Positions 75 to 64,000 of a DNA stretch of 64,000 nt are shown piece after piece; the stretch's first letter is position 1, and each line of letters opens with the position of its first letter. The notes beneath the pieces were generated by a model, which saw nothing but the letters and a program-made list of their open reading frames with translations, made no database searches and had not been told where the DNA came from. The DNA comes from a virus. Lineage: Duplodnaviria; Heunggongvirae; Uroviricota; Caudoviricetes. Where the stretch lies: IMG/VR virus record IMGVR_UViG_2541047680_000004. One strand, written 5' to 3'. The translations under genes were made by a program, and so were the position numbers.

Positions 75-434
75 TCAACCTTTCTTCATTAACTCGCGTT
101 TAATTTCATCGGTACGCATCGTGACATCGGCAGCAGTGATCGCCTCGTTCAGCTTCACGATGTCCTCGATTTCCTGCGGTGTCTTCTCCGCAAGATGGAA
201 AATAGCAGCACGAATCACATCAGAGCGGGTGAATTTCTCGAAGCGAGGGATGAACTTCATCATCTCCAGCAGTTCGAAGTATTCGTCTTCCAGTGACATT
301 GTGCGGCTTTTAATTTTCTCTTTGCCACGAGTCGGGCGTCCCTGTGGTCTGACTGGTTGGCGCAAAGGAGTTGTGTTCTTAGCCGGTGCATCAGGCTCTT
401 TGCGCTTTGCTAGGTCACCCATTTTCATGGACAT
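75..434 (-). CDS. putative partition partner protein (ParG/ParB-like candidate) downstream of ParA
   Basis: 119-aa ORF whose start overlaps the ParA stop by 1 nt; basic N-terminus; called from operon position, not from a recognised motif. Confidence 0.4.
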   Translation of the reverse strand: MSMKMGDLAKRKEPDAPAKNTTPLRQPVRPQGRPTRGKEKIKSRTMSLEDEYFELLEMMKFIPRFEKFTRSDVIRAAIFHLAEKTPQEIEDIVKLNEAITAADVTMRTDEIKRELMKKG

Positions 435-1102
435 TATTCTTCTTCCTCCAGACTCAACAGATAATCTACAAATTCTTCAAACTCGGCTTCCGCCTTTTTG
501 TCGCGCTCGCTACCGGTCATTTCAAAGATAGAACGACCAGACTCTTCCGCATCATCATAGACGTTGCGGTTATATAGATTGACTGGCGCAGACTCGATGC
601 CAAACGTCTCAACAATCTCTTTAGCCGCCAGAATGCGAGACACTTGTGATGGCAAAGCCGGGCACTGGTTCATGACCGCGCGGACCTTCACTTTATCGTT
701 TACATTACGAACATTGTCGATAATAGGATCGATGTCACGCAGAGATTTCAAATCACGACGCTTAGGACGAAGCGGGATAATGATAACGTCGGCCATCAGC
801 ATCGCTTGTCGCTGAATTTCGGAGTCAAAGCCACCAGCATCTACCACTACATACTCAGCTCTACCCTGAAGCGATTTTAGGTGCTTAATGATGTCATCCT
901 GAACGTATGCAAAAGGAATCAGCTCAAGGTCTTCGTTCTGTCGACGGTCTTCACACCAGCTCGTTGTCGTGCGCTGAATATCTATATCGGTGATATAAAC
1001 CTTCTTCTTCTTTTTGACTTTCAGGCAAACGGCAATTTGCTGGGCTACGGTGGATTTGCCTGGCCCGCCCTTTGTGCCGCCAACCACAAAGATCTTGGTC
1101 AT
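434..1102 (-). CDS. parA: ParA/Soj-family partition ATPase (small, type Ib-like)
   Basis: 222 aa; deviant Walker A GGTKGGPGKST near N-terminus; acidic C-terminal tail. Confidence 0.8.
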   Translation of the reverse strand: MTKIFVVGGTKGGPGKSTVAQQIAVCLKVKKKKKVYITDIDIQRTTTSWCEDRRQNEDLELIPFAYVQDDIIKHLKSLQGRAEYVVVDAGGFDSEIQRQAMLMADVIIIPLRPKRRDLKSLRDIDPIIDNVRNVNDKVKVRAVMNQCPALPSQVSRILAAKEIVETFGIESAPVNLYNRNVYDDAEESGRSIFEMTGSERDKKAEAEFEEFVDYLLSLEEEE

Positions 1103-9712: not shown

Positions 9713-12700
9713 TTACAGAAGGCCAATTCTTACTCGTAGGACGTTGTTATCGTCATAAACGTCAATCCGCTGACCATTTATGACCAGTCGCCCATTACCC
9801 CCGCTATTACCGTTGATCTCAAGCGTTCCATTTTTGCCGAACCGCCATCCAGATCTACCGCTAACAAAATTGGTAGATTGCAGATCGCCTACTTTTGCAT
9901 TGGTGATTGTGCCATCCTTGATATACGCACCATTCATATAGGCGATACTGTTTTCGATAACAAATGGCGTGGTGATCTTCCCGTTAACAGAGTTGACCAA
10001 ACCAAACCTGTCAGCCTGCACCAAAAACTGAGAAAGGCCAGTGGTGTCGATACCAAGCGCAATACCAGCAACATACTTCTGCCCTCCGCTCGTTGAAGTT
10101 TCCATTTTCAACGTCCACGCGGTTGACACTTTTTTGTTGGTATCAGCAATAGCTGTTGCCTGCTGTTGAATTGTCGCGGTATTTCCATCCACCTCTGCTT
10201 TCAGAGTATCGATTCGCCCACTCAGAGCATTATCTGCCTGCGTTCTCGCTGTCGTTTCAGTTGTTACCGCCGCGGAAATGTTGGCTGCCGTTTGAGACTC
10301 TAAGTTTGTGATTTGAGTCGCCAATGCAGCATCTTGCTCTGTACGCGTTTTCGTTTCGGTTGCTACAGCCGCTTTAATATCCTCTTTGTATTGAGAGGTC
10401 AGCTTGGTGATCTGAGACGACAACGCCGAGTCAGCATCAGTTCGAGCCTGCGTTTCAACTGCAACGGCCGCACTAATATCTTTCGCTGTCTGTGCTTTTA
10501 AACTTGAAACCTCTTTTGTTAAAGCGGTATCACCATCAGCACGAGCCGTTGTTTCTCTGGCAAGAGATGCCTCGAGATCATTAGCTTTTGCTGTAAGAGA
10601 CGAAATCTGAGTGGACAATGCACTATCGGCATCAGTCCTTGCCTTTGTCTCTACAGCAACCGCTGCGGCAATATCAGTTCCGGTTTGTGCTCGCAGGCTG
10701 TTAATTTCTCGTGAGAGCGCCTGGTCAGCACTTGCTCTGGCCTCCTGCTCCTGAGTGATGGCAGCGGATATATCACCGTCAACCTTTGACTGAAGCTGGT
10801 TTATTAGTTTGGCTAACGCAGAGTCCCCGCTTGCTCGGGCCTCCTGCTCACTACGTATTGCAGCAGAAATATCATCATCAACCTTTGCCTGAAGTTGGGT
10901 GATCTGGCTTGCCAGAGCCGAATCTTCCGTTGCTCGGGCTTCTTGCTCTTCCTTAATAGCTGCGACGATATCGTTGCTTACTTTCGACTCAAGCTGAGTG
11001 ATCTGTGTCGTCAGAGCTTCATCGGCAGATGTGCGAGCCTCCTGCTCTGTACTAATCGCCGCGCTGATATCTCCTTCAAACTTAGATTGCAGCTGAGTGA
11101 CACGCTTTGCCAACGCTTCATCGCCATCGGCACGAGCGGTGGACTCTTCCAGAATACTGGCCTTAATGTCTTCGCCAATTTCTACGCGAATTTCCTCAAC
11201 CTTCGTGGCCATTGCAGACATATCATCAGCAAAGGTTTTCTGTGTTGTTGCGATCTTCGCGTTATTGACCATCTGCTTGTGCTGGTCTTCATCTTGACGA
11301 AGAGCCAGGTCAATATTTGTTTTGGCTAACGCCTCAATGTTCGTAGTCAGTTCTGCACTGGCACGATCGACCTCTGCAACCGTCTTTTTCATTTCTTCAA
11401 CGGCAGCGGAGCTTTCCTCTACCGTTGACTGCAACACTTCCAGTTGTTTAGCGTTTGCAGCATCGCCTTCAACACGAGCCTCGCTTTCCTTAGCAATAAG
11501 AGCCGCCGCTTCATCTCTTGCAGCCTTTATTGCCTCGACTGTATTAGCGAGAGCTTTATCGTGTTCAGATACGGTGTTTTCGATTTCAACAATTGCAGCA
11601 TCAGTGGCATCAATTTTTTCAAACGCTTCATTGACCTTGTCGATCGTTGCCGAAACCTCACCTTTAAGCTCGGTTTGTGCGTTCTCCAAAGCATCGCTAC
11701 GCTCGTTGAATTTTATTTCAAAACCCGCGAGGTTATCGCTGAACTGCTTATCTAATTCAGCTATATCTTCCTTAACGTCGTTTACCGACCCCTCCAAAGA
11801 TTCGACGCTCTGGTTGATATGCTCATTTAACTCGTCAACTGCTTCTTGAGAGGCTTTGCTGTTGATGTCCTCAAGCAGAGCCTGACCAAGCTCGGAAGAT
11901 GTAATTTTGCCAGCCAGGAACGACAGTACATCGCGAGTTGTCGCCTCTGTACCCAAGTTTGAGTTCGGAGGGCTTAACATACCTCGCTTGTTCGATGCTC
12001 GAACCCAGTAATACCACGTTTCGCTATCCCCAAGACCAGCATGTGTAAAGGTGGTGCTTGCAGACTCTGCGATCAGTTTCGCCGTATCCAGATTGTTGGT
12101 CTGGGATGCGTAAACATTAATGTGATCAAGGTCTACCGAATCTGGATTAACCCAATTCAGTATCACATTACGATAGTCTCCAACGGCCGTTAATGACGTT
12201 GGGGCATCCGGCGGTGTCATTGTGCCCAACACCTGATAAACGGTACTGATAATCTCTGTTTTTTTACCGTTGAATGAAACCGCATACAGTTGGAAGTCGT
12301 AGCGTCCATTCTCCGCGACATTAACGATTTCGTATTGCTCTTCGGTTACACGCGCCGATTGCCAGTTCGATACATTGTTTTCATCAGAACGTCGCCAACT
12401 GATCCAATACTCTGGAGATTTTCCTTCCCATGTTGCAGTCAGTTTTACTGACAGGTTGCCCGGGCTTGAGAGATAAGTCCCTTCAGTGATTTGCAGATTA
12501 GATGGCTTGGAGTAAGTTGGGTCCAATACCGTCGTATTCTGCGGGATCAGCGTTGCACCATTGTCGATTGCCTCATATTTAGACGGATTGTTCTCAACAG
12601 CGGTGATGTCAAAGCTACCCGGCGTTTCCCCCTGCGCGATGTTAACGATGCGAACGCGCATAGGTTCGAGATCTGGTTCTGTAATTGTCCAGACACCGTT

Positions 12701-32004: not shown

Positions 32005-32020
32005 AAAACAACTTGTTTAC
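32005..32020. promoter_or_regulatory. family-1 operator-like dyad (AAAACAA-C-TTGTTT)
   Basis: matches dispersed consensus AGAAAACAAnTTGTTTTCT; upstream of terS. Confidence 0.45.
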
Positions 32021-32030
32021 TGCATCTGCT

Positions 32031-32049
32031 AACCAACTTGTTTTCTGGG
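32031..32049. promoter_or_regulatory. family-1 operator-like dyad
   Basis: AACCAACTTGTTTTCTGGG; second copy upstream of terS. Confidence 0.4.
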
Positions 32050-37325: not shown

Positions 37326-37748
37326 ATGAAATACTCGCTTCTCCCTCTACTAACGTTACCAGTGTTGATGCTTACCGCGTGCCAATCACGCCCAATATCA
37401 ATCCATGACGCCAAACCAGCACCGCAGGCCAAAGTGTTCAAGTATCAAAGCGCAGCGCCAGCTACGTTGGTGGTAATGAGAGACACAGGTTTTGTAGGAG
37501 CTGGATGTGATGCTTCCATTTTCATCAACGGCGAAACTGTCGCAAAACTGGCTACAGGCGAAAAAGCGACTTTCCATTTAAATGCCGGAGAATTAATTGT
37601 GGGTGCATCTCTTGAAGGTGCAGGTTTATGTGCTCTAAACCCCGCTCGTCAAGAGCGAGAAACGACTCTGAAGAATGGAGACACAAAAGCGTTCAGGGTG
37701 TTCACCAGCAATTCTGGTGACATCGACATTCTGCCAACAACTCTGTGA
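37326..37748 (+). CDS. lipoprotein
   Basis: signal peptide MKYSLLPLLTLPVLMLTAC with lipobox LTAC; start set at MKYSL. Confidence 0.5.
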   Translation: MKYSLLPLLTLPVLMLTACQSRPISIHDAKPAPQAKVFKYQSAAPATLVVMRDTGFVGAGCDASIFINGETVAKLATGEKATFHLNAGELIVGASLEGAGLCALNPARQERETTLKNGDTKAFRVFTSNSGDIDILPTTL

Positions 37749-37752
37749 TGAC

Positions 37753-38277
37753 ATGACAACCAAAGATATTACCTACGGTATCCAAGCTGAACTCTGGCCG
37801 CGAGATTACACTAACGTTGAAAAACTACTGATGTTCTGGCGCAGAGAACAAATTCCTGTAAGGGTCACTCTCGAAGATGGCCAGGCGTTTTGCATGTACG
37901 TTTATGGCCTCATGCCATCTCGTAACAAAGTTGACCTTTGCCCAGCCCCTTTTGACAAAGAAAATCGTATAAGGCTCCCACTTGAACGCATTAGTACAAT
38001 TGAATCAGGTGTGGTTGACAGTATCGCTCACGATTTCAAAGGTCGACTAACAGTTCACCCTGATTATGTCGATAATCGGCCATCACGCCGCGATTTTTTT
38101 GCAATTTGCAACCAAGCCTACAAAGCAAACAAATCTATAAGGGTGTACATGGCGGATGGCCGTGAAATTGAGGGGGTGTCAGCAGGCGCAGATGCTTGTC
38201 AGGTTACACTACGTGTCGAGAACGGTAGAAAAATAGTTGTTTTGTTCGATTGGGTTGAACGAATTTTGCCTTTTTGA
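37753..38277 (+). CDS. hypothetical protein
   Basis: 174 aa from MTTKDITYG; no motif recognised. Confidence 0.45.
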   Translation: MTTKDITYGIQAELWPRDYTNVEKLLMFWRREQIPVRVTLEDGQAFCMYVYGLMPSRNKVDLCPAPFDKENRIRLPLERISTIESGVVDSIAHDFKGRLTVHPDYVDNRPSRRDFFAICNQAYKANKSIRVYMADGREIEGVSAGADACQVTLRVENGRKIVVLFDWVERILPF

Positions 38278-39793: not shown

Positions 39794-40024
39794 ATGTTTG
39801 TTCTTATCGCTGGCGTTAACGTCCATAATGAATATTATGTTAATCGCATCGCTGGGATCGCTGGTTACGCTGGGCGCGCAGTCGAGCTTATAGATGAAAC
39901 GACGCGCAAAATTGACTTATTGAGCGACCAGGAGCGAAAAAAAGCAGACGTGAACGACGCTGATATATTTTTAATGTTAAAAGCGTTTGTAGAAATGGGA
40001 TTTGAAATCAGTCTACATAAATAA
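39794..40024 (+). CDS. hypothetical small protein (moron gene 3)
   Basis: 76-aa ORF with RBS-like AAGGAG upstream. Confidence 0.4.
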   Translation: MFVLIAGVNVHNEYYVNRIAGIAGYAGRAVELIDETTRKIDLLSDQERKKADVNDADIFLMLKAFVEMGFEISLHK

Positions 40025-40029
40025 AATCG

Positions 40030-40054
40030 AGCGCCCACTATGGGCGCTTTTTTC
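40030..40054 (+). terminator. rho-independent terminator
   Basis: stem GCGCCC/GGGCGC, loop ACTAT, then TTTTTT. Confidence 0.65.
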
Positions 40055-40075
40055 GTTTCCAATACTCCCACCAAA

Positions 40076-40101
40076 ACGCGCCAATGATGGCGCGTTTTTT
40101 A
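40076..40101 (+). terminator. second tandem terminator (bidirectional shape)
   Basis: stem ACGCGCCA/TGGCGCGT, loop ATGA, T-run after and A-run before. Confidence 0.6.
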
Positions 40102-40472
40102 TTGTCTTTAACTCACTCCAACAACATAAAAATAAGCGCCAAAATAACGCCATAGACGCGCTTTTATATCCTTACCAGTACATACCCATTACTTAACACA
40201 TTAACGCGCTTAAAACGCGTTATATTGCGCTATAGAGTATGGTTAATCATTGGCTTTTAGTCTTGCTTTATGATCCGCGTTTATTTGTCGGCGCGGATCG
40301 GCATTTTGTTTTGTTCCGTATCCGCTCGCGTATTATGTGCGCGTGATTTTTCACATAATCACACCACTTAATCACGTATGTGATTATGCTACGAAAGAAA
40401 TCTGGATGTCTCAGGCGACGAAAGTCATCATAATTTTCCCCGCTCACCTGTCCGACAACCGCTGGTTGGATT

Positions 40473-40480
40473 CCACCAGC
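40473..40480 (-). other. Chi sequence (GCTGGTGG on minus strand)
   Basis: CCACCAGC on plus strand; forms 9-bp inverted repeat with the Chi at 40597-40604 bracketing iteron cluster 1. Confidence 0.5.
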
Positions 40481-40594
40481 TTCCCGATGTTTTTTCTACA
40501 CAAAGGCGAATGCAGCCGTTTCCCGAAAAAATCCTGGCCGTTCCCCGTCGGCTCATGAATACGTTCCTCGCCGTTTCTGAAAATTTCCCTGCGG
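40481..40594. repeat. iteron cluster 1 (direct repeats of GCCGTTTCCCGAAAA-like units)
   Basis: units at about 40514, 40536, 40570 with partial copies at 40488, 40561, 40584; 22-33 bp phasing; ORF-free convergent intergenic region. Confidence 0.6.
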
Positions 40595-40596
40595 CA

Positions 40597-40604
40597 GCTG
40601 GTGG
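40597..40604 (+). other. Chi sequence GCTGGTGG
   Basis: exact octamer. Confidence 0.5.
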
Positions 40605-40640
40605 CTATAGAGAAAGGGCCGTTTCTGGCCCTCTTCTCAG

Positions 40641-41123
40641 TTACACGCCATCAAGGATGTGGATGCGGTTGCTTGCGTATACATTCAGCATAAAGTTAGC
40701 GCAAAACAGTTTCCATGTATCAACGCCAGCGGTATACGTAATGTTTTTGCATTTAATCGCATTGTTGGCGATCCGCATCCCCTGCGATACTGCTTCATCG
40801 TCGGAAAATTTGAACGACGATTGAGTTTTAATCCAGACAGAAATCTGCGTAGCAAACTCAATCAGCTTAGACTGGCAGAATCGCCCGGAGCGTACCGGGA
40901 AGACGAACGTTCCGAATCCAGAATTAACCACATATGCTTTCTCAAATACCCTCGAGTAACGACGATTGCCAATGATGTCGCGTGCAATAATGCATTTTTC
41001 TTGTGCTGACAGTTCTACCGTCTCATTGTCGCGCCATGCACCAAGTACTCGTTTTTCAATGTCAGAGAACGTTACAGCGATATTGCCATGTGCGGGTGCG
41101 TTTACAGTAGCGATAAAATTCAT
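40641..41123 (-). CDS. hypothetical protein
   Basis: 160-aa ORF preceded by family-1 operator and GATAAT-like element. Confidence 0.45.
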   Translation of the reverse strand: MNFIATVNAPAHGNIAVTFSDIEKRVLGAWRDNETVELSAQEKCIIARDIIGNRRYSRVFEKAYVVNSGFGTFVFPVRSGRFCQSKLIEFATQISVWIKTQSSFKFSDDEAVSQGMRIANNAIKCKNITYTAGVDTWKLFCANFMLNVYASNRIHILDGV

Positions 41124-41142
41124 GATTAATTCCTTATCGTAA

Positions 41143-41177
41143 ATAACAAATTGTTTTCTTGTTGGTGTTAATTATCG
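41143..41177. promoter_or_regulatory. family-1 operator/promoter element
   Basis: AACAAATTGTTTTCTTGTTGGTGTTAATTATCG; GATAAT-like -10 on gene strand. Confidence 0.5.
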
Positions 41178-41207
41178 TTGTACGAATAAGGCGTCAAAGT
41201 GGAAAGT

Positions 41208-41280
41208 TGCGGTAGCCGGACGGGAACAGGTGGGTTTGTCGGTTGCCTGGAGGTAAGAGGTTGGTGTTTTTAGCCTGCGG
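41208..41280. repeat. about 70-bp G/T-rich repeat, copy A
   Basis: roughly 75 percent identical to 44385-44455 (shared GGTAGCC..AGGTGGGT..TCGGT.GCCTG..AAGAGGTTGGT). Confidence 0.5.
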
Positions 41281-41473
41281 GAAACAGGATGGTCATTTAA
41301 GGCCACCAATGCTGATGGCCTTAATAATTATCGACCGATTACGCTAAGGATCTTTTCCTCAACTGATTTGTTGTTGCGACTAAACTGCCTTGCGTATCTG
41401 ATGACAGAAGAGGCGTTTTGCTTTCTGACCATCTCGGCTCTTTCCTTCAGGCGTTTCTTGAAATCGCCCATAT

Positions 41474-41848
41474 TTACCACCAGGCGCAGAAGGTCAGTCT
41501 GTTATTGTGAAAGTCGTGGTTCCTGATCAGGTCTTCCACAAGTTTTTTCAGCTTATCCACGTCATGCCAGTAACCTTCGTCGTACTCCTGACTGCCGAAG
41601 AAAAAACCTTCCCGAGTAGGCAAGTACTCTTCGCAATTGCTTTCGTTTATGTGCATCAAATGAGCTTTCAGAAGACAAATGTCATTCATCGTTAATTCTA
41701 AAAGCTCACAATTTTCGACTTCACCTACGTTGCGCTCCATCCACCCAACGAGCGCATTGAACTTACGGAAGTAAGCAACCTGCTTTCTGGATGCCTCGTT
41801 ATTCAGATCGTTTTTAGGCTGTGTCTCGATATAGATATCAAGTCCCAT
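41474..41848 (-). CDS. hypothetical protein
   Basis: start set at MGLDIY with RBS AAGGAAA; Trp/Cys-containing C-terminus. Confidence 0.45.
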   Translation of the reverse strand: MGLDIYIETQPKNDLNNEASRKQVAYFRKFNALVGWMERNVGEVENCELLELTMNDICLLKAHLMHINESNCEEYLPTREGFFFGSQEYDEGYWHDVDKLKKLVEDLIRNHDFHNNRLTFCAWW

Positions 41849-41882
41849 GATGGTTTCCTTATTAAGTTGCTTCAGTGAAATC

Positions 41883-41922
41883 ATTTTCACAAATCAGATA
41901 AGGCAGAAAACAAATTGTTATC
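41883..41922. promoter_or_regulatory. family-1 operator element (B-form)
   Basis: ATTTTCACAAATCAGATAAGGCAGAAAACAAATTGTTATC. Confidence 0.5.
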
Positions 41923-41930
41923 GGGCATAA

Positions 41931-41958
41931 TAAAATGGCGCGGTTTACGCGCCATTTA
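41931..41958 (-). terminator. terminator hairpin after gene 41966..42361
   Basis: perfect inverted repeat AAATGGCGCG / CGCGCCATTT with loop GTTTA. Confidence 0.5.
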
Positions 41959-41965
41959 AAGAGGA

Positions 41966-42361
41966 TTAAGCGAATACGCTTTCAGGGATTAAGGTGTCGG
42001 CAGGAATGCCAGAGGTAATGCGCAGACCGTACTGGCCAATCCAGGTGGTGCTGGTGTTCAGGCTGGAGGCGAATACGGTGTTAACCATATTCATCATGGT
42101 TTCAAACACCTCTTCATCAACCTGGCGGAAGTAGTTCTCGATTTTCAGCAGCAGCGGGTCAGTTGCATCGAGAATGGACTGGTATTGAGTCGCGTACTCG
42201 CCGTCGGAGGCATCACCTTTACGCACGATCGTACTGGCCTGTACTTCGGCACCAGTTTCGGTGTTGTACGTAACAACGGTGATTTTTGCCACATTCTTAC
42301 CTTCGGCGGTTTCAGAGGCATAGTAAACATCAACTGTCAGTTTTTCGCGTTTAACGGTCAT
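41966..42361 (-). CDS. hypothetical protein
   Basis: start set at MTVKREKL with RBS GGAGAG. Confidence 0.45.
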   Translation of the reverse strand: MTVKREKLTVDVYYASETAEGKNVAKITVVTYNTETGAEVQASTIVRKGDASDGEYATQYQSILDATDPLLLKIENYFRQVDEEVFETMMNMVNTVFASSLNTSTTWIGQYGLRITSGIPADTLIPESVFA

Positions 42362-42487
42362 TTCACTCTCCGTAGTGTATTGGTTATTTTTATATTCTAT
42401 GATCGTAAGTATGTACTTACAATACAAAAAAGCCCCGTAAGGATGGCGGGGCTGTCGTACTGTCGACTAATTACCACTTGCACATTA

Positions 42488-42799
42488 TCAGGCTATTGCC
42501 ATCACTGATGCTCTCTGAATTTCTTGCTGGGCCACGCGGTTAACTTCCATCAAGGCCAGTTCGAGCTGATGTTCCGGCCACATTCTTTGAAACGCCATCC
42601 AGCCTTTTCCACGCTGGCGACGAACATTCATTACATAACGAGTAAAGGTGTTTTTATCGAAAGACACCGCTGTTTCACGGAACAGACGAATAGAGGTTCC
42701 ATTGGCAACGATGTCCAGCAAAGTTAATTGAGCAACCAGCGCAGGCTTCTCTTTTCTCTTCTGGTCTTTGTCCAGACCAAGAACCAATGATTTTTTCAT
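42488..42799 (-). CDS. hypothetical protein
   Basis: start set at MKKSLVLGL; basic. Confidence 0.45.
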   Translation of the reverse strand: MKKSLVLGLDKDQKRKEKPALVAQLTLLDIVANGTSIRLFRETAVSFDKNTFTRYVMNVRRQRGKGWMAFQRMWPEHQLELALMEVNRVAQQEIQRASVMAIA

Positions 42800-42810
42800 C
42801 ACAACTCCGT

Positions 42811-42834
42811 AAACAACTTGTTTTCTCAATGGCG
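42811..42834. promoter_or_regulatory. family-1 operator element
   Basis: AAACAACTTGTTTTCTCAATGGCG about 12 nt upstream of the start codon. Confidence 0.5.
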
Positions 42835-42953
42835 TAAATAATACCAGTAAGAAAACGGCTACAAAGCATAATGATCAGGTGTATGAGCGATATGCAGGTT
42901 CTTCCCTGCGGCTACAGATGAAGTTAAGCCAGCATTGCTGGCTTTGGTTGGGT

Positions 42954-43283
42954 TTACTCGAATACTTCAAGAAACTCCTGAACGTCCCAATGCTGGACGA
43001 GGTGAAGATAGACCTTAGAAATCACGTCATTTTCGCTATCGCATGTGAAGTAGTACTTCTGGCTGCGGTTGTATGTGTCCACACAAAATTCGCTCATATC
43101 CATAAAGTCAGCATCTTCACCCATGTCGCAAATCATCAAAGCAGGTGCATCATCACGAGTCATCAGCTCCAGCACCCATCTTGAATTAATCAGAGTGGAA
43201 GACCAACCTTCCAGCTCATAGAACTGGTCAAACTCTTTTTGAGTTAATTTCTTGATTTGGTTGATGTCGATATTTGCAAACAT
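42954..43283 (-). CDS. hypothetical small acidic protein
   Basis: start set at MFANIDIN; Asp/Glu-rich. Confidence 0.45.
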   Translation of the reverse strand: MFANIDINQIKKLTQKEFDQFYELEGWSSTLINSRWVLELMTRDDAPALMICDMGEDADFMDMSEFCVDTYNRSQKYYFTCDSENDVISKVYLHLVQHWDVQEFLEVFE

Positions 43284-43294
43284 AAAGCAATCCT

Positions 43295-43329
43295 TAAACA
43301 ACATGTTTTCTTGATGGTGTTATTATCGC
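43295..43329. promoter_or_regulatory. family-1 operator/promoter element
   Basis: TAAACAACATGTTTTCTTGATGGTGTTATTATCGC. Confidence 0.5.
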
Positions 43330-43444
43330 AATAACGCACAGGCGAAAAAGGATTTTATTCCGGTGAATATGGTTTTGGCAGTGAGTTTTCAGGTTCAGTA
43401 CCGAGTATACTTTTTACATTATTCTGATTTAGTGGCCGAAGGTG

Positions 43445-43452
43445 GCTGGTGG
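43445..43452 (+). other. Chi sequence GCTGGTGG
   Basis: exact octamer about 200 bp from iteron cluster 2. Confidence 0.45.
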
Positions 43453-43644
43453 GCAGAATAATCCTCTCCCCGAAAACCTACTGAAATCGATTGTGACCCG
43501 TTGGCTGTCTGGCACAATTACGCTGTAGCTGGGCATTCAGAGGGAATCCAGCGGTAAGCAAGTCCGCCTACGTGAGCGCCTCTCTTCTTCCCGCACATTA
43601 CAGGTGGGTAGCCGCAACTCTCCCTCTCGCTATACCGGTACGCC

Positions 43645-43777
43645 GCCGTTCCTGAACCGGCATCGAGCCTTTTCCCGAAATCCACACAGGCAACTCGACC
43701 GTTTCCCTGAAAACCTCCAGCCGTTCCCCGAAGGCAACCCAGCCTTTTCTGTAGCGGGATGCAACCTTTTCCCTGTA
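43645..43777. repeat. iteron cluster 2 (six direct repeats, about 22-bp phasing)
   Basis: units at 43645, 43666, 43697, 43719, 43741, 43763 (e.g. GACCGTTTCCCTGAAAA); extra copy near 43470; same family as cluster 1. Confidence 0.65.
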
Positions 43778-44100
43778 TGGACCGAAGGCTGACCGTAGGG
43801 GTTTTACGGGGGATAAAATCAGGAGTTGAATAAATACGAAAAAGGAGGCGACACCCCTCCTTCCCTCCCCACTTATACATACCTGGCTTCTTCGCTATAC
43901 ATGTTGTGTTTTCTTCGTGTTTTATCTGTCTCAACCTCTCTATAGGCGTTAATGCTCACTCCTTCCAGAACCTTCTATACGGCGACTATTTCTGTTGGTG
44001 AATTGGGTGTGTTGTTCTCTCTGTCGGTGTATGTGGTTTCGTTCGTTTTGCGGTGGTTCTTCTATGGGGTGTTCTCGTCGTTTTGGTGATTGTTCTTCTC

Positions 44101-44460
44101 CGTGTATGGAGTAATGGCAGGTGGGCGATTCCTTTCGTTATTGTGTTTGAGTTGTTTGTCTGGAGTGTGTGAAAGGCTTTTGTAGTTATTCGTGTATTGG
44201 GTAATGGCGTTTCCCGTGATTGTTATGTTTCGTGTCTTTTGGGATTGAGAGAAACCTTGCGGTTACAGGCTTCGTTGGGGTTTCAGTGATTCTGGTGTTT
44301 CTTCGCTGTTTGGGTAATGGCGTGTCGTGGGTATCGCGCGTATGAATGTTTTCGGATTGCCTGTGAAAGTTAGGTTGGTTGTCCGGTAGCCTGGGGAGAA
44401 GAGGTGGGTCTTTTCGGTAGCCTGCCATAAAGAGGTTGGTTGTTTTGGGTAATGGTATAT
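44101..44460. repeat. direct repeats in GT-rich ORF-free region
   Basis: CGTGTAT(T)GG(A/G)GTAATGGC at 44101, 44191, 44304 and degenerate copy at 44437; strong G+T excess on plus strand across 43960-44700. Confidence 0.55.
44385..44455. repeat. about 70-bp G/T-rich repeat, copy B
   Basis: pairs with 41208-41280. Confidence 0.5.
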
Positions 44461-44701
44461 GTGTTATTTAGTTGTTTTGTTATGCCTGAAAATAAGTTGT
44501 TTATATGGTTGTGTAACGCAACGGGAGCGATTTTGAGCGTGTGTTTTTGTTGGTAGTGTGTTGAGTCGTCTGTGGTGAAAATTGGACGCTGTGGCGCTAT
44601 CTGCTGCGTAGAATTACGGGTATAAGAAGTGATGTGTGATAACGTCAATTTTTTAGACCAAATCGGGAGAAAGCGTTGATGTTTCGTTGATCTGTTATTT
44701 A

Positions 44702-44728
44702 GTTGTTTTCTTATTGGTATAAACAACC
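44702..44728. promoter_or_regulatory. family-1 half-site element
   Basis: GTTGTTTTCTTATTGGTATAAACAACC; would drive minus-strand transcription into the GT-rich region. Confidence 0.35.
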
Positions 44729-44845
44729 ATAACCTATTGATATTTAATGATGTGATTGCTGGTATGGGAGGGGAGTAGTGGCGATCAACGGGTTCTTATA
44801 GAAAAGAATCAAATTGTGACCGCCATTATCAATAAGTTGCAACCG

Positions 44846-45451
44846 TTAGTTGTTCAGATAAACATTTGGAACACGGACGTAGAACTTACTGTTACCGGTA
44901 AGTTCCAGAGTAATGTTAATGTCATTACCATTGTCTAGTGTAGCCGTCGCTCTATAGAACTTATCAGTTACCTTTTCGTCAATATTAACCTTGATGCATT
45001 TCGCCGCAGTAGAACCATTATGCTCTTTCAGAATAGTTGTCACGACAGGACATGCGGCTTCCTCAATGACGCCATCTTCCTGTTTCGGTATTACAATGAA
45101 GAATACGTAAGCCAGCAAGGTAACGACTATAATAAATGGCAGTCTACTGCTCTTTGTTATAGTCGCACGCTTCCATAGGTAGATTGGCATGAAAACTATT
45201 CCCCATAAAATAGCAGGTGGCTCATAGCCGGATTCCGAAATCGCCATTCTGTCAGCCACTAATAATCCGATGGCAGCTAAACTTCCAATTAATACAGCAT
45301 AATTTGCATACTCTTCGTTCGGAATGCCGAAGCAAATTGGAATAAAAGCTAAAATCCACGCATAAGTGTTATTCAAAGGTTTTTTTTGTTGGTTATTGGT
45401 TTCCATCACATCCATCTCATCACTTAAATTACTTGTATATATTATCAACAT
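44846..45451 (-). CDS. membrane protein (three or four N-terminal TM helices plus soluble C-terminal domain)
   Basis: hydrophobic segments WILAFIPICF, VLIGSLAAIGLLV, AILWGIVFMPIYL, FIIVVTLLAYVFFIV; AT-rich segment. Confidence 0.5.
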   Translation of the reverse strand: MLIIYTSNLSDEMDVMETNNQQKKPLNNTYAWILAFIPICFGIPNEEYANYAVLIGSLAAIGLLVADRMAISESGYEPPAILWGIVFMPIYLWKRATITKSSRLPFIIVVTLLAYVFFIVIPKQEDGVIEEAACPVVTTILKEHNGSTAAKCIKVNIDEKVTDKFYRATATLDNGNDINITLELTGNSKFYVRVPNVYLNN

Positions 45452-46062: not shown

Positions 46063-46095
46063 AAACAAGTTGTTTTCTTATGTGGTTTATTATCT
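46063..46095. promoter_or_regulatory. family-1 operator/promoter element
   Basis: AAAACAAGTTGTTTTCTTATGTGGTTTATTATC. Confidence 0.5.
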
Positions 46096-46107
46096 CCATC
46101 AACAAAA

Positions 46108-46130
46108 GGCAGAAAACATATTGTTTTAGG
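46108..46130. promoter_or_regulatory. family-1 operator element (B-form)
   Basis: GGCAGAAAACATATTGTTTTAGG about 40 bp from metG terminator. Confidence 0.5.
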
Positions 46131-46210: not shown

Positions 46211-48244
46211 TTACTTAACCTGGTGGCCAGGTTTAGCACCAGCATCCGGGCTTAACAGGAAGATATCTTTCCCGCCGGGGCCAGCAGCCATCACCATGCC
46301 TTCAGAGATACCGAAGCGCATTTTACGCGGAGCCAGGTTAGCCACCATAATTGTGTGACGACCAATCAGTGCCTGTGGGTCTGGATAAGCAGAACGGATG
46401 CCTGAGAAGACATTACGCTTTTCACCACCGAGATCCAGCGTCAGGCGCAGCAGCTTGTCAGAACCTTCAACAAACTCTGCGTTTTCAATCAGCGCCACGC
46501 GCAGGTCAACTTTAGCGAAGTCGTCAAAGGTGATGGTTTCCTGAATCGGGTCGTCTGCCAGTGGGCCAGTTACCGGTGCGGCTGTGGCTTTCACTTCTTC
46601 TTTGGATGCTTCCACCAGTGCTTCCACCTGTTTCATATCGATACGGTTATACAATGCCTTGAACGGATTCACTTTATGGCCCAGCAGCGGTTGCTGGATA
46701 CCATCCCAGGTCAGTTCTGTATTCAGGAATGCTTCTGCACGTTCAGTCAGTTTCGGCAGTACCGGTTTCAAGTAAGTCATCAGCACGCGGAACAGGTTAA
46801 TGCCCATAGAGCAAATCGCCTGCAGATCGGCATCGCGTCCTTCCTGCTTCGCCACCACCCACGGAGCCTGTTCATCAACATAGCGGTTAGCCAGGTCAGC
46901 CAGTGCCATGATTTCACGGATAGCTTTACCAAATTCGCGGCTTTCCCATGCTTCGCCAATCACTTCAGCGGCATCAGTAAAGGTTTTGTACAGTTGCGGG
47001 TCAGCCAGTTCGCTTGCCAGCACGCCGTCAAAACGCTTGTTGATAAAGCCTGCATTACGGGAGGCCAGGTTAACCACTTTGTTCACGATATCGGCATTCA
47101 CGCGCTGAACGAAATCCTCCAGGTTGAGATCGATATCATCAATGCGCGAAGAGAGTTTCGCAGTGTAGTAGTAACGCAGGCTGTCGGCGTCAAAATGATT
47201 CAGCCAGGTGCTGGCTTTAATAAAGGTACCGCGAGACTTAGACATCTTCGCGCCGTTCACCGTCACATAGCCATGAACAAACAGGTTGGTCGGCTTGCGG
47301 AAGTTGCTGCCTTCCAGCATTGCTGGCCAGAACAGACTGTGGAAGTAAACAATATCTTTACCGATGAAGTGGTACAGCTCGGCGGTGGAGTCTTTCTTCC
47401 AGTATTCATCGAAGCTTACGCTGTCGCCGCGCTTGTCGCACAGATTCTTGAAAGAACCCATATAGCCAATCGGCGCATCTAGCCAGACGTAGAAATATTT
47501 ACCCGGCGCGTTCGGAATTTCAAAACCGAAATACGGCGCGTCGCGGGAGATATCCCACTGTTGCAGGCCAGATTCAAACCACTCCTGCATTTTATTTGCC
47601 ACCTGCTCCTGCAACGCACCGCTGCGGGTCCATGCCTGCAACATTTCGCTGAAAGAGGGCAGATCAAAGAAGAAGTGTTCAGAATCACGCATTACCGGCG
47701 TAGCGCCAGAAACCACCGATTTCGGCTCGATCAATTCAGTCGGGCTGTAGGTCGCGCCGCAGACTTCGCAGTTATCGCCGTATTGATCCGGGGATTTACA
47801 TTTCGGGCAGGTGCCTTTCACAAAACGATCCGGCAGGAACATGCCTTTTTCCGGGTCGTACAACTGAGAGATAGTGCGATTTTTAATAAAACCGTTCTCT
47901 TTCAGGCGAGTATAGATAAGCTCAGACAACTGACGGTTCTCTTCGCTGTGCGTCGAGTGATAGTTGTCATAGCTGATGTTAAAGCCTGCGAAATCAGTCT
48001 GGTGTTCCTGACTCATTTCGCCAATCATCTGCTCCGGTGTGATACCAAGTTGCTGTGCTTTCAGCATGATCGGCGTACCGTGGGCATCGTCGGCACAGAT
48101 GAAATTAACCTCGTGGCCGCGCATTCGCTGGTAACGAACCCAGACATCAGCCTGGATGTGCTCCAGCATATGGCCGAGGTGGATTGAGCCGTTAGCGTAC
48201 GGCAGCGCGCACGTCACCAGAATTTTCTTCGCGACTTGGGTCAT
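46211..48244 (-). CDS. metG: methionine--tRNA ligase
   Basis: 677 aa from [25 protein letters not shown] (HIGH-type) with KMSKS; C-terminal tRNA-binding domain; near-identical to enterobacterial MetG as I recall it. Confidence 0.97.
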
Positions 48245-48401
48245 AGTAGGCATTACTTCTTTGTAGTGAAAAGGGGCTTGATAGTAACAAAATGGCCTTA
48301 TGTCTGCCATGTGATAACAGCATTTCTCATAAATGATTAAATGTCGCAGCTGGAGTACACTACAAGGCGACAATTGCGCAAATTAAAATAAAGGAGACGG
48401 G

Positions 48402-49502
48402 ATGAGCGAGTCCAAATCGCCGGATGCCCTGAGAGCAATGGTAGCCGGTACGCTGGCTAATTTTCAGCACCCAACCCTGAAACACAACCTGACTACGCTT
48501 AAAGCGTTACACCATGTTGCGTTGATGGATGACACACTGCATGTCGAACTAATCATGCCTTTCGTGTGGAATAAGCCTTTTGAAGACCTGAAAGAGCAAT
48601 GTAGTGGTGATCTGCTCCGTATCACTGGCGCAAAGGCTATTGACTGGAAGCTGTCGTACAACATTGCCACGCTTAAGCGCGTCAAAAACCAACCAGGCAT
48701 TAATGGTGTTAAGAATATTATCGCCGTAAGCTCAGGCAAGGGCGGTGTAGGCAAATCGTCCACAGCAGTAAACTTGGCACTGGCTTTGGCTGCTGAAGGT
48801 GCGAAAGTTGGTATTTTGGATGCCGATATCTATGGTCCATCAATTCCAACCATGCTGGGCGCGGAAAACCAACGTCCAACCTCACCGGACGGTACTCACA
48901 TGGCACCTATCATGTCTCATGGCCTGGCAACCAACTCTATTGGTTATCTGGTCACCGACGACAATGCAATGGTGTGGCGTGGACCGATGGCCAGCAAGGC
49001 GCTGATGCAGATGTTGCAGGAAACACTGTGGCCTGATCTGGACTATCTCGTTCTCGATATGCCGCCGGGCACTGGTGATATTCAATTGACGCTGGCGCAG
49101 AACATTCCTGTAACTGGTGCGGTTGTGGTAACTACGCCGCAAGACATCGCGCTGATCGATGCGAAGAAAGGCATTGTGATGTTCGAAAAAGTCGAAGTGC
49201 CGGTACTAGGTATCGTCGAAAACATGAGTGTGCATATTTGCAGTAACTGCGGTCATCACGAGCCAATTTTTGGCACCGGTGGCGCACAGAAACTGGCCGA
49301 GAAATACAACACGCAGTTGTTAGGCCAAATGCCACTTCATATCTCTCTTCGTGAAGATCTGGATAACGGAACACCAACCGTTATTAGTCGTCCAGATAGC
49401 GAATTTACGGCTATTTATCGTGACCTCGCAGATCGCGTTGCTGCCCAAATGTATTGGCAAGGTGAAGTAATACCTGGCGAAATCGCATTCCGCGCAGTGT
49501 GA
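48402..49502 (+). CDS. apbC: Fe-S cluster carrier ATPase Mrp/ApbC
   Basis: P-loop SSGKGGVGKS, CxxC motif (CSNCGH); divergent from metG as in E. coli. Confidence 0.95.
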   Translation: MSESKSPDALRAMVAGTLANFQHPTLKHNLTTLKALHHVALMDDTLHVELIMPFVWNKPFEDLKEQCSGDLLRITGAKAIDWKLSYNIATLKRVKNQPGINGVKNIIAVSSGKGGVGKSSTAVNLALALAAEGAKVGILDADIYGPSIPTMLGAENQRPTSPDGTHMAPIMSHGLATNSIGYLVTDDNAMVWRGPMASKALMQMLQETLWPDLDYLVLDMPPGTGDIQLTLAQNIPVTGAVVVTTPQDIALIDAKKGIVMFEKVEVPVLGIVENMSVHICSNCGHHEPIFGTGGAQKLAEKYNTQLLGQMPLHISLREDLDNGTPTVISRPDSEFTAIYRDLADRVAAQMYWQGEVIPGEIAFRAV

Positions 49503-58510: not shown

Positions 58511-58549
58511 AAACAAGTTGTTTTCTTATTGGCTTTATTGTGATGTGGC
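58511..58549. promoter_or_regulatory. family-1 operator/promoter element
   Basis: AAACAAGTTGTTTTCTTATTGGCTTTATTGTGATGTGGC. Confidence 0.5.
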
Positions 58550-59238: not shown

Positions 59239-59270
59239 AAAACAAGTTGTTTTCTAATTACATAAATTGC
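59239..59270. promoter_or_regulatory. family-1 operator/promoter element
   Basis: AAAACAAGTTGTTTTCTAATTACATAAATTGC. Confidence 0.5.
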
Positions 59271-60153: not shown

Positions 60154-60740
60154 TTGTTATAAACAAAACCAATATCTTTCTTGTGAGGCATATCTGCTGC
60201 TGAAAAAGCTGCGATCTTCGCGAGTCGATCACATATTTCATTTTCACGATGCCCGGCGTGACCTTTAACCCACTTCCAGCGAACATTATGTCGACTTGCG
60301 GCCTCATCCAGACGCTTCCACAGATCAACATTCTTTACCGGTTTTTTGTCAGAAGTCATCCATCCATTGCGTTTCCACCATTTCATCCACTGTGTCATGC
60401 CGTTTTTCAGATACTGGCTATCAGAGTGCAAAATAACGTTGCATGGATATTTCAAACGCTCCAGCCCGATAAGTGCCCCCATCATCTCCATGCGGTTATT
60501 GGTGGTGCTATGAAAACCATCTGAGAACTCGCGTTCCTCACCACGATACTGGAGAACGATACCGTAACCGCCCGGGCCACCCGGATTTTTAAGGCAAGAG
60601 CCATCACTAAAGATTTTCACGGTTTTAAGCTGGGGATTGAACTCTACGACAGGCGTTGTGGGATTGGTGCGGGGAGAATTTTTGTTTTTGTCTTTTTTGC
60701 GAGTTTTTGCTTGCGATCGGGCTGGTGTCTTCGTCGTCAT
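60150..60740 (-). CDS. ribonuclease H (RNase HI family) with basic N-terminal extension
   Basis: SDGSC, NNRME, HSDSQY, VKGHAGH, NE..D motifs; start set at MTTKT with RBS AGGAG. Confidence 0.8.
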
Positions 60741-60839
60741 ATAAACTCCTGAATCAAGCGCCGCGCCGATTTTTCCTCGCGCGTGCGCACACGCGTGCGT
60801 GTTAATAATTATTAAAATAAACAAATTACTTCCCAGAAC

Positions 60840-61205
60840 AGGTTTTTATAAACCTGAACTGAACGAACGAAGTGAGTGACGTTCACCTCGAACGAAGTGA
60901 GAGGTTGTCTTTTCAGGTAATACTCTCCCAGGGAGGTGAGTATAAAATTCCTCACCAACCTGGTCGTTTCATAACCTGAAAAGCTATGGTCTAAGTCTAC
61001 TGCCAGCTTAGACTTGGGAAGTTATGGATGACAGCACCCCAGAACCGAGATCTTCCCACACTTTATGAAGGGGAGTACTGGATTCAACCTCTCGAAACAC
61101 CCCAGACTCGACAATCATAAAGTGACCCTTGTCTCTGCTCACTTTGGTTCCCCCTTCCCCGACACCTATACGGCACCGGTTCTACGCTGGTAGTGAGCTT
61201 TTTTA
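60840..61205 (+). ncRNA. candidate structured noncoding RNA (antisense to flanking genes)
   Basis: ORF-free 480-bp gap; nested inverted repeats CTTTTCAGGT/ACCTGAAAAG and GGTGAG/CTCACC; duplicated GAACGAAGTGAG; plus-strand hairpin GCTCACT..AGTGAGC followed by TTTTTT at 61137-61205. Confidence 0.3.
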
Positions 61206-61321
61206 AACCTGACGCCAGTGACGCTTACCCCCACCCATCAGGTCGAGCCTCCAGTCTACGACTGGAAACTATCAGATCTTAGCACTTACAATTCACTTTA
61301 TGAATAGTTTGTACTTATCTA

Positions 61322-61576
61322 TCATTGTGATTGATTATTTTCTCGACCATGTAGTTGAACATTCAAGGCAAACACCTCATTGATCAACTCACCTAAAAGC
61401 TGTTCAACAAGTTCGCGATGCTCGCCAAGATGCAAGCACTTAATTGCCCACTCGTACAAGTTGAAAGCCTGCTCACGATCTTTCATCATTTCACGAGCCT
61501 GGGCCAGAAAATCGCTCTCTACGAGCGCAACGACATTAGTCGGGTATGACATGTTGGTTTCCTTAAAGTGGTTCAT
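61322..61576 (-). CDS. hypothetical protein
   Basis: 84-aa ORF. Confidence 0.35.
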   Translation of the reverse strand: MNHFKETNMSYPTNVVALVESDFLAQAREMMKDREQAFNLYEWAIKCLHLGEHRELVEQLLGELINEVFALNVQLHGRENNQSQ

Positions 61577-61659
61577 AAAATCGATTTTAAAGCGTCTGGG
61601 AAGGGGGTCTAGTGGATTCTGTAGTGATGTTCAGGTCTGGGAGTCTCTGATACAAAACA

Positions 61660-61716
61660 GCCTGCTTCCGTATATTAATAATTAATATGTAGTTATTTAT
61701 ATATACAGAAGCAGGC
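61660..61716. repeat. large AT-centred palindromic element, copy 2
   Basis: arms GCCTGCTTCCGTATAT / ATATACAGAAGCAGGC; GGTCTGG 19 nt upstream. Confidence 0.6.
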
Positions 61717-63784: not shown

Positions 63785-64000
63785 CTGATGAATCCCCTAA
63801 TGATTTTGGTAAAAATCATTAAGTTAAGGTAGATACACATCTTGTCATATGATCAAATGGTTTCGCGAAAAATCAATAATCAGACAACAAGATGTGCGAA
63901 CTCGATATTTTACACGACTCTCTTTACCAATTCTGCCCCGAATTACACTTAAAACGACTCAACAGCTTAACGTTGGCTTGCCACGCCTTACTTGACTGTA
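63785..64000 (+). mobile_element. IS10 (IS4 family) end, partial, continues beyond window
   Basis: sequence from CTGATGAATCCCCTAATGATTTTGGTAAAAATCATTAAG matches the IS10 terminal sequence as I recall it. Confidence 0.85.
63892..64000 (+). CDS. IS10 transposase, N-terminal fragment (partial at window edge)
   Basis: translation MCELDILHDSLYQFCPELHLKRLNSLTLACHALLD. Confidence 0.85.
   Translation, partial: MCELDILHDSLYQFCPELHLKRLNSLTLACHALLDC

Follow-up and report, generated by a model that had tools for sequence, protein, structure and literature searches.

The 64,000-nucleotide stretch analysed here (the window) is one strand of the virus record IMGVR_UViG_2541047680_000004, and the element in question is an array of six short direct repeats within it, cluster 2, together with the smaller cluster 1, which lies 3.13 kb away. 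The region from 40,000 to 44,500 that holds both clusters is 97.5% identical to Escherichia phage CMS-2020a and to Cyrano (pLF82) and 94% identical to PhiR41_1, with partial matches to Klebsiella phage-plasmids and to Salmonella phage SSU5, and because of these identities the window is, as judged from its sequence, part of an SSU5-type (SSU5/Cyrano-like) phage-plasmid of ~108 kb. Besides virion genes it encodes two ParB_N proteins, two ABC-type ATPases and a UvsW-like helicase, followed by the array region, a host-derived metG-mrp block and accessory genes (coordinates of the main features are collected in Table 1). All genes from ~64 kb down to 40.6 kb lie on the minus strand and those between 35.4 and 40.0 kb on the plus strand, so that cluster 1 sits at a convergent junction.

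A sequence-only reading of this DNA had placed six phased repeats of 15-17 bp between 43645 and 43763. Reading of the sequence together with a scan for the core CC[GT]TT[CT][CT] confirms them, with plus-strand cores starting at 43646, 43668, 43699, 43721, 43743 and 43765, each displaced by 1-2 nucleotides from the position first given, and with core-to-core spacings of 22, 31, 22, 22 and 22 bp. The repeat core can be written CC(G/T)TT(C/T)C(C) and the fuller unit as approximately cAGCCGTTTCCCtGAAA; the 7-8 bp core has a high information content and its flanks (cAG preceding, C(C)nG following) a moderate one, which makes the proposed unit length reasonable. The core pattern has a background of 54 matches on the plus strand and 28 on the minus strand of the 64 kb. 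Taking 200 dinucleotide-preserving shuffles as the null model, the largest cluster of cores within 130 bp had six members compared to two or three in the shuffles, and five pairs of cores were exactly 22 bp apart compared to none or one.

Two other readings of the array region were tried and rejected. A 62-amino-acid plus-strand open reading frame (ORF) runs over the array (43604-43792) with recurring xFP/xFS tripeptides, and we discarded a protein-coding repeat because the 31-bp step shifts the frame, the conserved register being that of DNA and not of a peptide. A plus-strand promoter downstream of the array (CTGACC, 19 nucleotides, TAAAAT) was discarded because of an overlong spacer and a lack of conservation in SSU5. 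No promoter-like site was predicted to overlap either array, the units are asymmetric, and the literature that we searched holds no description of these repeats.

Cluster 1 carries the same repeat family in the same orientation. Plus-strand matches to the core start there at 40516, 40538, 40571 and 40619, spaced 22, 33 and 48 bp, and the first three are good units. The fourth was rejected as a unit: it is the loop of the minus-strand terminator hairpin of the gene for the 160-amino-acid protein p160, a hairpin of which both stem arms differ in SSU5 and Klebsiella, where they read GGGGC/GCCCC. The earlier picture of two clusters of one family with small genes between them is thereby supported, except that the bracketed genes number six and not five, a 47-amino-acid ORF having been overlooked. 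A further copy claimed near 43470 stands in part: the 3' half of the unit matches (CTCTCCCCGAAAACCTACTGAAA) and the CCGTT head is missing. The block that contains this half-unit is kept in Klebsiella and absent from SSU5, where a gene replaces the segment.

The Chi octamer GCTGGTGG that had been described as adjoining cluster 2 is present at 43445, and yet its association with the array is probably incidental, since it reads GCTGGCGG in Klebsiella and Chi is enriched over the whole window. Twelve Chi sites are found compared to 1.3 expected, an approximately nine-fold excess that none of 100 shuffles reached, and eight of the 12 are on the minus strand; their positions include 831, 13293, 14385, 20527, 29395 and 32262 (minus) and 17690, 36743, 40597 and 43445 (plus). 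The enrichment suggests selection for protection from RecBCD in a phage-plasmid. The octamer inside cluster 1 is kept in most relatives among the Enterobacteriaceae.

Both clusters occur at matching syntenic positions in Cyrano, PhiR41_1, SSU5 and two Klebsiella phage-plasmids. The spacing of cluster 2 is repeated in Cyrano and SSU5, PhiR41_1 has lost one unit (22, 31, 22, 21), and the Klebsiella array reads 22, 22, 22 after a 9-bp difference. When viral contigs were scanned for three cores phased at 22 bp, 92 loci were obtained, most of them SSU5/pKpn-like with the layout of the window; other 22-bp arrays in viral contigs (L016, L017, L025, L055, L066, L080 and others) were set aside, as they have only a 7-mer in common with ours and homologues of the window proteins were not detected there. 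An alignment of 52 sequences shows little or no variation in the cores and in two flanking blocks, with diverged spacers, and the flank element GACCGTAGGG is found in Xenorhabdus too. Cluster 2 is part of a noncoding stretch of 1.55 kb for which 838 plasmid records gave matches, with 66-75% nucleotide identity between genera. Both clusters are also retained in pRHB27-C18_3 (CP057419.1, 39770-41850; L103 in our set), a 52-kb derivative without any virion genes, in which IS100 is inserted ~140 bp left of cluster 2 and a separate 13-bp deletion has removed unit 1.

Core arrays at both places were found in more distant relatives as well, namely two Xenorhabdus elements, the viral contigs L106, L117 and L142 and the assemblies L209 and L211. 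Their spacing is 24/34/48 or irregular (6-28 bp), with nine cores per cluster in L211, and a close packing of cores, at steps of 6-7 bp, occurs in L211, L106 and Xenorhabdus. As these relatives keep the cores without the 22-bp phasing, the selected element is the core of 8-9 bp, the phasing being specific to the Escherichia/Salmonella/Klebsiella clade. Absence of phasing had been named beforehand as the outcome that would speak against iterons; the phasing holds in the clade of the window and is lost in the distant relatives. For the former, phasing at about two helical turns and selection on the units make iteron a fair label.

The two clusters and the nearby 30-bp repeats (CGGTAGCCTGG..AGAGGTGGGT, at 41207-41299 and 44381-44446) have similar relative spacing, suggesting an ancient duplication, and the arrays might on this account be a chance or neutral remnant of it with no present function. 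As the clustering was never reproduced by the shuffles, and the cores are kept while the spacers have diverged across genera, down to 23% identity of the neighbouring protein, we give this explanation almost no credence. Judging from the repeats and their conservation, we think it very probable that the sites of cluster 2 bind protein and are under selection as a genuine array, with cluster 1 as its partner.

The proposed resemblance to an ori-rep-inc plasmid replicon does not hold, as a separate and complete RepA replicon lies elsewhere in Cyrano and no Rep initiator was found between the clusters. In Cyrano repA is at 60,633-61,688, flanked by 21-bp iterons CTCTATAGTGGWT, candidate DnaA boxes TGTGGATAA and GATC clusters, and the window does not contain the published primer sequence for repA. 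These IncFIB-type iterons of the same phage-plasmid family are, like the arrays, phased direct repeats (21-22 bp) on the same replicon. They differ in sequence (CTCTATAGTGGWT and not CCGTTTCC) and in location, flanking repA ~35 kb away and outside the window, on which grounds we reject the arrays as RepA iterons; for the candidate DnaA boxes and GATC clusters of the RepA origin no counterparts were found at the array locus. Screening the complete Cyrano genome for exact 7-mers, which misses cluster 2 as its units are too variable, returned the RepA iterons, cluster 1 and one irregular, chance-looking match, and in a scan of Cyrano for CCGTTTCC-type cores the two clusters were the only convincing sites.

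Pfam matched none of the six enclosed proteins, and such PHROG matches as they have are all to families of unknown function. That no Rep-like initiator lies among them, as had been remarked, agrees with our results, since no tested enclosed protein resembles one by Pfam, PHROG or the model of p160. A winged-helix initiator fold had been suggested as something to look for there, and structure prediction of the largest, p160, gives a confident model without a winged helix or any other known fold, so that p160 was rejected as an initiator. For p103, which is without a family match, the sequence pattern read by eye suggests beta strands followed by a C-terminal helix. Searches of PDB by sequence or profile with p160, p103 and p216, the protein considered next, found nothing.

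The candidate binder of the arrays, p216, is encoded ~1 kb from cluster 1, just outside the bracketed block. Its predicted structure (predicted local distance difference test score, pLDDT, 85.5) consists of a long helical N-terminal domain followed by a C-terminal winged helix. Pfam gives no match, PHROG only families of unknown function, and the best Foldseek matches, all weak, are the winged-helix regions of Orc1/Cdc6 and ORC. The family comprises 24 representatives at 50% clustering; all members with identifiable surroundings are in SSU5-like gene order, and the most conserved segment is the predicted recognition helix (TQxNQ..L.ER.G). Every homologue with usable flanks, including those of L206, L209 and L211, has a core array within ~1 kb. 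At the rearranged L206 locus the homologue (23% identity) has the units CCAGCCGTTCCC, GCCTTTCCC and GCCCTTTCTC upstream on the opposite strand. This metagenome contig, which encodes the p216 homologue most distant of all, has a second repeat array beside that gene, at 1026-1140, made of six or seven 16-bp tandem repeats (CATGTAGCGTATGCAT) ~80 bp from the three CCGTTCCC-type units. A search for related loci in viral contigs with distant p216 homologues found nothing.

RNA sequencing of strain LF82 found the p216 orthologue CYRAN_113 at the detection floor (5.9), with terminase at 7 and Pol III alpha at 10, and found RepA (133), ParA (50), the ParA partner (89) and the repressor (96) expressed (PMC9928086). 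The silence of p216 in lysogens points to a lytic-phase role. Its invariant helix fits the array better than it fits the other conspicuous motif of the locus, the palindromic operator-like GAAAACAAnTTGTT described below, because that operator is absent from the Xenorhabdus loci. On linkage, predicted fold and helix conservation p216 is the likeliest binder of the array, an assignment for which we consider the odds to be even. In most relatives p216 is adjoined by a FljA-like protein (37675-38277, plus strand; PF03614 'repressor of phase-1 flagellin', E 2.5e-84, with a weak Hfq-like signal), which may be an RNA-binding translational repressor of phage or host messages.

Table 1. Coordinates of features in the window.
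Feature	Position	Strand	Remarks
Virion genes	1-32 kb	-	
ParA partner, 119 aa	75-434	-	
Type Ib ParA	434-1102	-	
p216, 216 aa	38872-39522	+	candidate array binder; predicted N-terminal helical domain and C-terminal winged helix
Second Chi near cluster 1	40473-40480	-	
Cluster 1	40516-40595	+	three good units and half-unit TTTCCCTGCGG; core scan, alignment
Chi octamer inside cluster 1	40597-40604	+	
p160 gene terminator hairpin	40613-40632	-	AGGGCC-GTTTCT-GGCCCT
p160, 160 aa	40641-41123	-	basic; adjoins cluster 1
p47, 47 aa	41328-41471	-	basic; Cyrano CYRAN_109, expressed in lysogens
p124, 124 aa	41474-41848	-	acidic; in some lineages only
p131, 131 aa	41966-42361	-	acidic; kept as far as Xenorhabdus (31% identity)
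p103, 103 aa	42488-42799	-	basic; isoelectric point 10.5
p116	42954-43283	-	acidic; some lineages only; true start Met8, giving 109 aa
GAAAACAAnTTGTT site	43297-43310	-	
GAAAACAAnTTGTT sites at other small genes	41145-41158, 41906-41919, 42812-42825		
Further GAAAACAAnTTGTT sites	1139-1152, 32007-32045, 44488-44501, 46064-46128, 58512-58525, 59241-59254		
Chi octamer beside cluster 2	43445-43452	+	
Degenerate half-unit and conserved block	43466-43492	+	contains CTCTCCCCGAAAACCTACTGAAA
Cluster 2, six direct repeat units	43646-43785	+	core pattern scan, shuffles, conservation
Conserved array flank	43786-43822	+	GGCTGACCGTAGGGG...TTACGGGGGAT; (near-)invariant columns in the alignment
Intrinsic terminator	43838-43865	-	ends noncoding transcription unit just before array
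Noncoding region, ~0.95 kb	43900-44850		G/T-rich on plus strand: 31% G, 41% T, 15% C
Promoter/operator units in noncoding region	44459-44483, 44690-44714	-	

If a winged-helix protein were bound to arrays that share one orientation, replication forks arriving from one direction might be stopped there, as at a polar barrier or terminus. The common polarity of the two clusters and the convergence of transcription at cluster 1 would suit such a role, and the weak Foldseek matches of p216 include Bacillus subtilis RTP, which is no better a match than dozens of other winged-helix proteins. In addition, the location is not opposite the RepA origin, and the cumulative GC skew has no inflection at the clusters, the skew being monotonic, probably due to nearly all genes facing one way, and thus uninformative for origin detection. 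We therefore hold a fork barrier to be very unlikely.

The genes for ParA and its partner raise the question of partition, in which the arrays would be centromere-like sites for the two proteins, or pairing sites for segregation or copy control. Short direct repeats in several clusters are typical of type Ib/II centromeres, the packing of cores at 6-7 bp in L211, L106 and Xenorhabdus is heptad-like, and no other repeat array is evident beside parA; moreover, ParA and its partner are expressed in lysogens and the 52-kb derivative has retained both clusters after losing the virion genes. However, the arrays are ~40 kb from the par operon, the upstream region of which has the palindromic GAAAACAAnTTGTT operator and not the array motif. 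The partner, which by eye looks ribbon-helix-helix-like in sequence, returned no match in a Pfam search, and the neighbour that is conserved at the arrays is p216, silent in lysogens. The same 52-kb derivative also persists despite the loss of unit 1 of cluster 2 and the IS100 close by, and overall we regard a partition or maintenance site as improbable.

A further reading starts from the surroundings of the arrays. Each lies immediately downstream, in the sense of the minus strand, of an intrinsic terminator, and the hairpin and CGTATTTATT tail beside cluster 2 have equivalents in Klebsiella and Xenorhabdus. The arrays could be cooperative operators for p216 or another regulator, looping to silence or activate the cassette of small genes, or they could be protein roadblocks that reinforce the minus-strand terminators and keep adjacent transcription units apart, in either case with no role in replication. 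The placement directly after terminators, kept in Klebsiella and Xenorhabdus, agrees with this, as does the position of cluster 2 ~340 bp upstream of the promoter of the next gene; the enclosed genes encode variable small acidic or basic proteins, each with an operator-bearing promoter, and the flexible spacing of distant lineages sits more easily with a regulator. A layout of two operator clusters 2-3 kb apart around a gene block is also that of OL and OR in lambda. Nevertheless, no promoter is near cluster 1, which occupies a convergent 3'-3' junction, the asymmetric direct repeats overlap no predicted promoter, and a separate, abundant palindromic operator is already present at each promoter. 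We rank an array for regulation or insulation second, as possible and somewhat doubtful.

That palindromic motif, GAAAACAAnTTGTT, stands ahead of each small gene, ~14-15 nucleotides after a GATAAT-like -10 hexamer, and also upstream of parA and terS. With up to two mismatches it matches 26 times in the window compared to 3.1 expected, it is abundant in the SSU5 and Klebsiella relatives, and from its distribution it looks like a genome-wide operator, for which the ParA partner and the FljA-like protein are candidate regulators.

The terminators bear on yet another possibility, an element acting at the level of RNA, in which read-through of the minus-strand terminators would yield a transcript whose repeated GGGAAACGG or CAGGAAC motifs titrate a GGA-binding protein such as CsrA. 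GGA is present on the minus strand in five of the six units, and the arrays come after minus-strand transcription units; on the other hand they lie beyond the terminators and lack a promoter of their own. Whether the gathering or the E-value threshold was applied, Rfam gave no match at the array locus; as a single strand the array does not fold in any unusual way (z 0.65 and -1.17), and conservation falls on an exact DNA core and not on a structure. There is little chance, in our view, that this is what the arrays do.

Based on these data we favour a lytic origin or replication enhancer as the function of the arrays, with a probability of roughly 0.35 that draws on sequence comparison and on the model of p216. 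Cluster 2 would be one of two ancient arrays of short sites in the same orientation (core CCGTT(T/C)CC), separate from the RepA replicon. Several copies of a phage-encoded sequence-specific protein, for which p216 is the best candidate, would load side by side on each array; the two arrays would then cooperate, probably by looping out the 3.1-kb cassette, and would mark an origin, or an origin with its enhancer, for the phage's own replisome, that is, a lytic replicon distinct from RepA. We rank this first because the element has a full replisome (DnaB-like helicase, DnaG-like primase, Pol III alpha and T4-like UvsW/X/Y), examination of the surroundings of the helicase/primase module found neither an initiator family nor a repeat array, and the clusters are the only iteron-like arrays found that do not belong to RepA. 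In addition, the candidate binder appears to be a winged-helix protein of the lytic phase, and phage origins with two clusters of sites have precedent. The context supplies a strongly strand-skewed noncoding unit beside cluster 2 and, 250 bp to the left of cluster 1, a stretch of 64% AT with hairpins.

Several observations weigh against a lytic origin. The winged-helix similarity of p216 is generic, no Foldseek match reaches E 0.001, and no plasmid Rep is among the matches listed. An AT-rich unwinding element adjoining cluster 2 was not found (42% AT, and 42-45% for the cluster with its flanks), the sole near-DnaA-box at the array (AATCCACAC) is not conserved in SSU5, and the skew, as said, has no inflection at the clusters. 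The cores of distant lineages, unphased and in some cases 6-7 bp apart, are unlike classical iterons, and the position of the arrays just downstream of minus-strand terminators suits an insulator or roadblock equally well. Finally, the linkage between p216 and the arrays could be conserved synteny in all but one locus. A further step that we propose only tentatively is that the p216 family would be an unrecognised class of phage origin-binding initiator or origin-marking factor, found only in SSU5-like phage-plasmids and reading an 8-9 bp CCGTTYCC in two arrays, which would define the lytic replicon and the switch from RepA replication to that of the phage, possibly coupled to a skewed noncoding transcript.

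The noncoding region in question, to the right of cluster 2, has a GC skew of +0.365 and contains GGGTAATGGC repeats and one set of the 30-bp repeats (44384-44445), the other set recurring within 41190-41300. It is present in SSU5, Klebsiella, Xenorhabdus and L211 with a cross-genus conservation equal to that of the neighbouring genes, and it may encode a C/A-rich noncoding RNA or be a cis-acting DNA element; the Cyrano annotation places spurious ORFs in the matching region. The convergent intergenic region to the left of cluster 1 (40025-40510) has two tandem plus-strand terminators and conserved hairpins, a 12-bp tandem repeat AAAATAACGCC in two copies and GTGATT/AATCAC inverted repeats (40343-40390), and some of its blocks are kept as far as Xenorhabdus.

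Elsewhere in the window, the metG-mrp block (46211-49502) carries a full-length methionyl-tRNA synthetase gene and a divergent gene for an Mrp/ApbC-like ATPase, annotated MinD. It is 99-100% identical among E. coli-type elements and absent from the SSU5 and Klebsiella relatives, and it looks like a captured host fragment, the two genes being adjacent on the E. coli chromosome. A full-length Rfam match to RNA-OUT, the antisense RNA of IS10/Tn10 (98.8 bits, 63830-63899, minus strand), indicates that an IS10-type element is probably present at the right end. A 99-bp tandem repeat (2.2 copies, 77% matches, 10731-10948) lies within a tail/host-specificity gene of 1576 amino acids.

Phage-plasmids of the SSU5/pKpn type are common in clinical E. 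coli, Klebsiella, Salmonella and Enterobacter, published surveys report that they can carry resistance genes, and their RepA replicon is used for typing. In the literature we found no account of lytic replication in these elements, nor of the role played by the conserved noncoding block that separates the UvsW region from the accessory genes. The present analysis supplies a conserved pair of cis-elements, their consensus and a specific candidate binding protein. Were the arrays a lytic origin, they would provide a handle on the switch from plasmid to phage and a marker for intact versus defective elements; were they the sites of a regulator or an insulator, they would explain the control of a hotspot of small accessory genes.

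The arrays resemble several known systems in part. The incC-repA-incA region of P1 and the incB-repE-incC region of F are iteron-controlled plasmid replicons, and in them, as here, direct repeats of ~22 bp with a conserved core and a variable spacer form two clusters of one family around coding sequence. Unlike those of P1 and F, the arrays of the phage-plasmid have no Rep-family gene between or beside them and lie 3.1 kb apart around six unrelated small genes, and no DnaA boxes or adjoining AT-rich 13-mers were evident. Their conserved part is only ~8-9 bp, the phasing is lost in distant relatives, and a separate RepA replicon has iterons of its own. Type Ib and type II centromeres, such as parC1 and parC2 of pB171, the omega-binding heptads of pSM19035 and parC of R1, likewise have short direct repeats in more than one cluster, and some lineages of our arrays approach the heptad-like step of 6-7 bp; the difference is that the arrays are away from the par operon and that their conserved neighbour is a predicted winged-helix protein, silent in lysogens, and not a ParA partner. 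The operator triplets OL and OR of lambda, brought together by CI-mediated looping, share with our arrays an arrangement of two clusters of three to six sites, ~22-24 bp from centre to centre and 2-3 kb apart, flanking small genes, and yet the lambda operators are near-palindromic and sit on divergent promoters, whereas the sites described here are direct repeats without symmetry that lie beyond terminators.

Recognition of two separate site clusters by a phage initiator is known from P4, in which the winged-helix domain of the alpha protein recognises ori and crr, and from SPP1, in which G38P recognises oriL and oriR. p216 differs in that it lacks primase and helicase domains and that no relationship to alpha or G38P can be detected in its sequence. 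The likeness, as drawn from sequence and from the model of p216, lies in a phage replication system that would use a short recognition sequence placed in two clusters kilobases apart, with the further parallel that in P4 the binder is a winged-helix domain.

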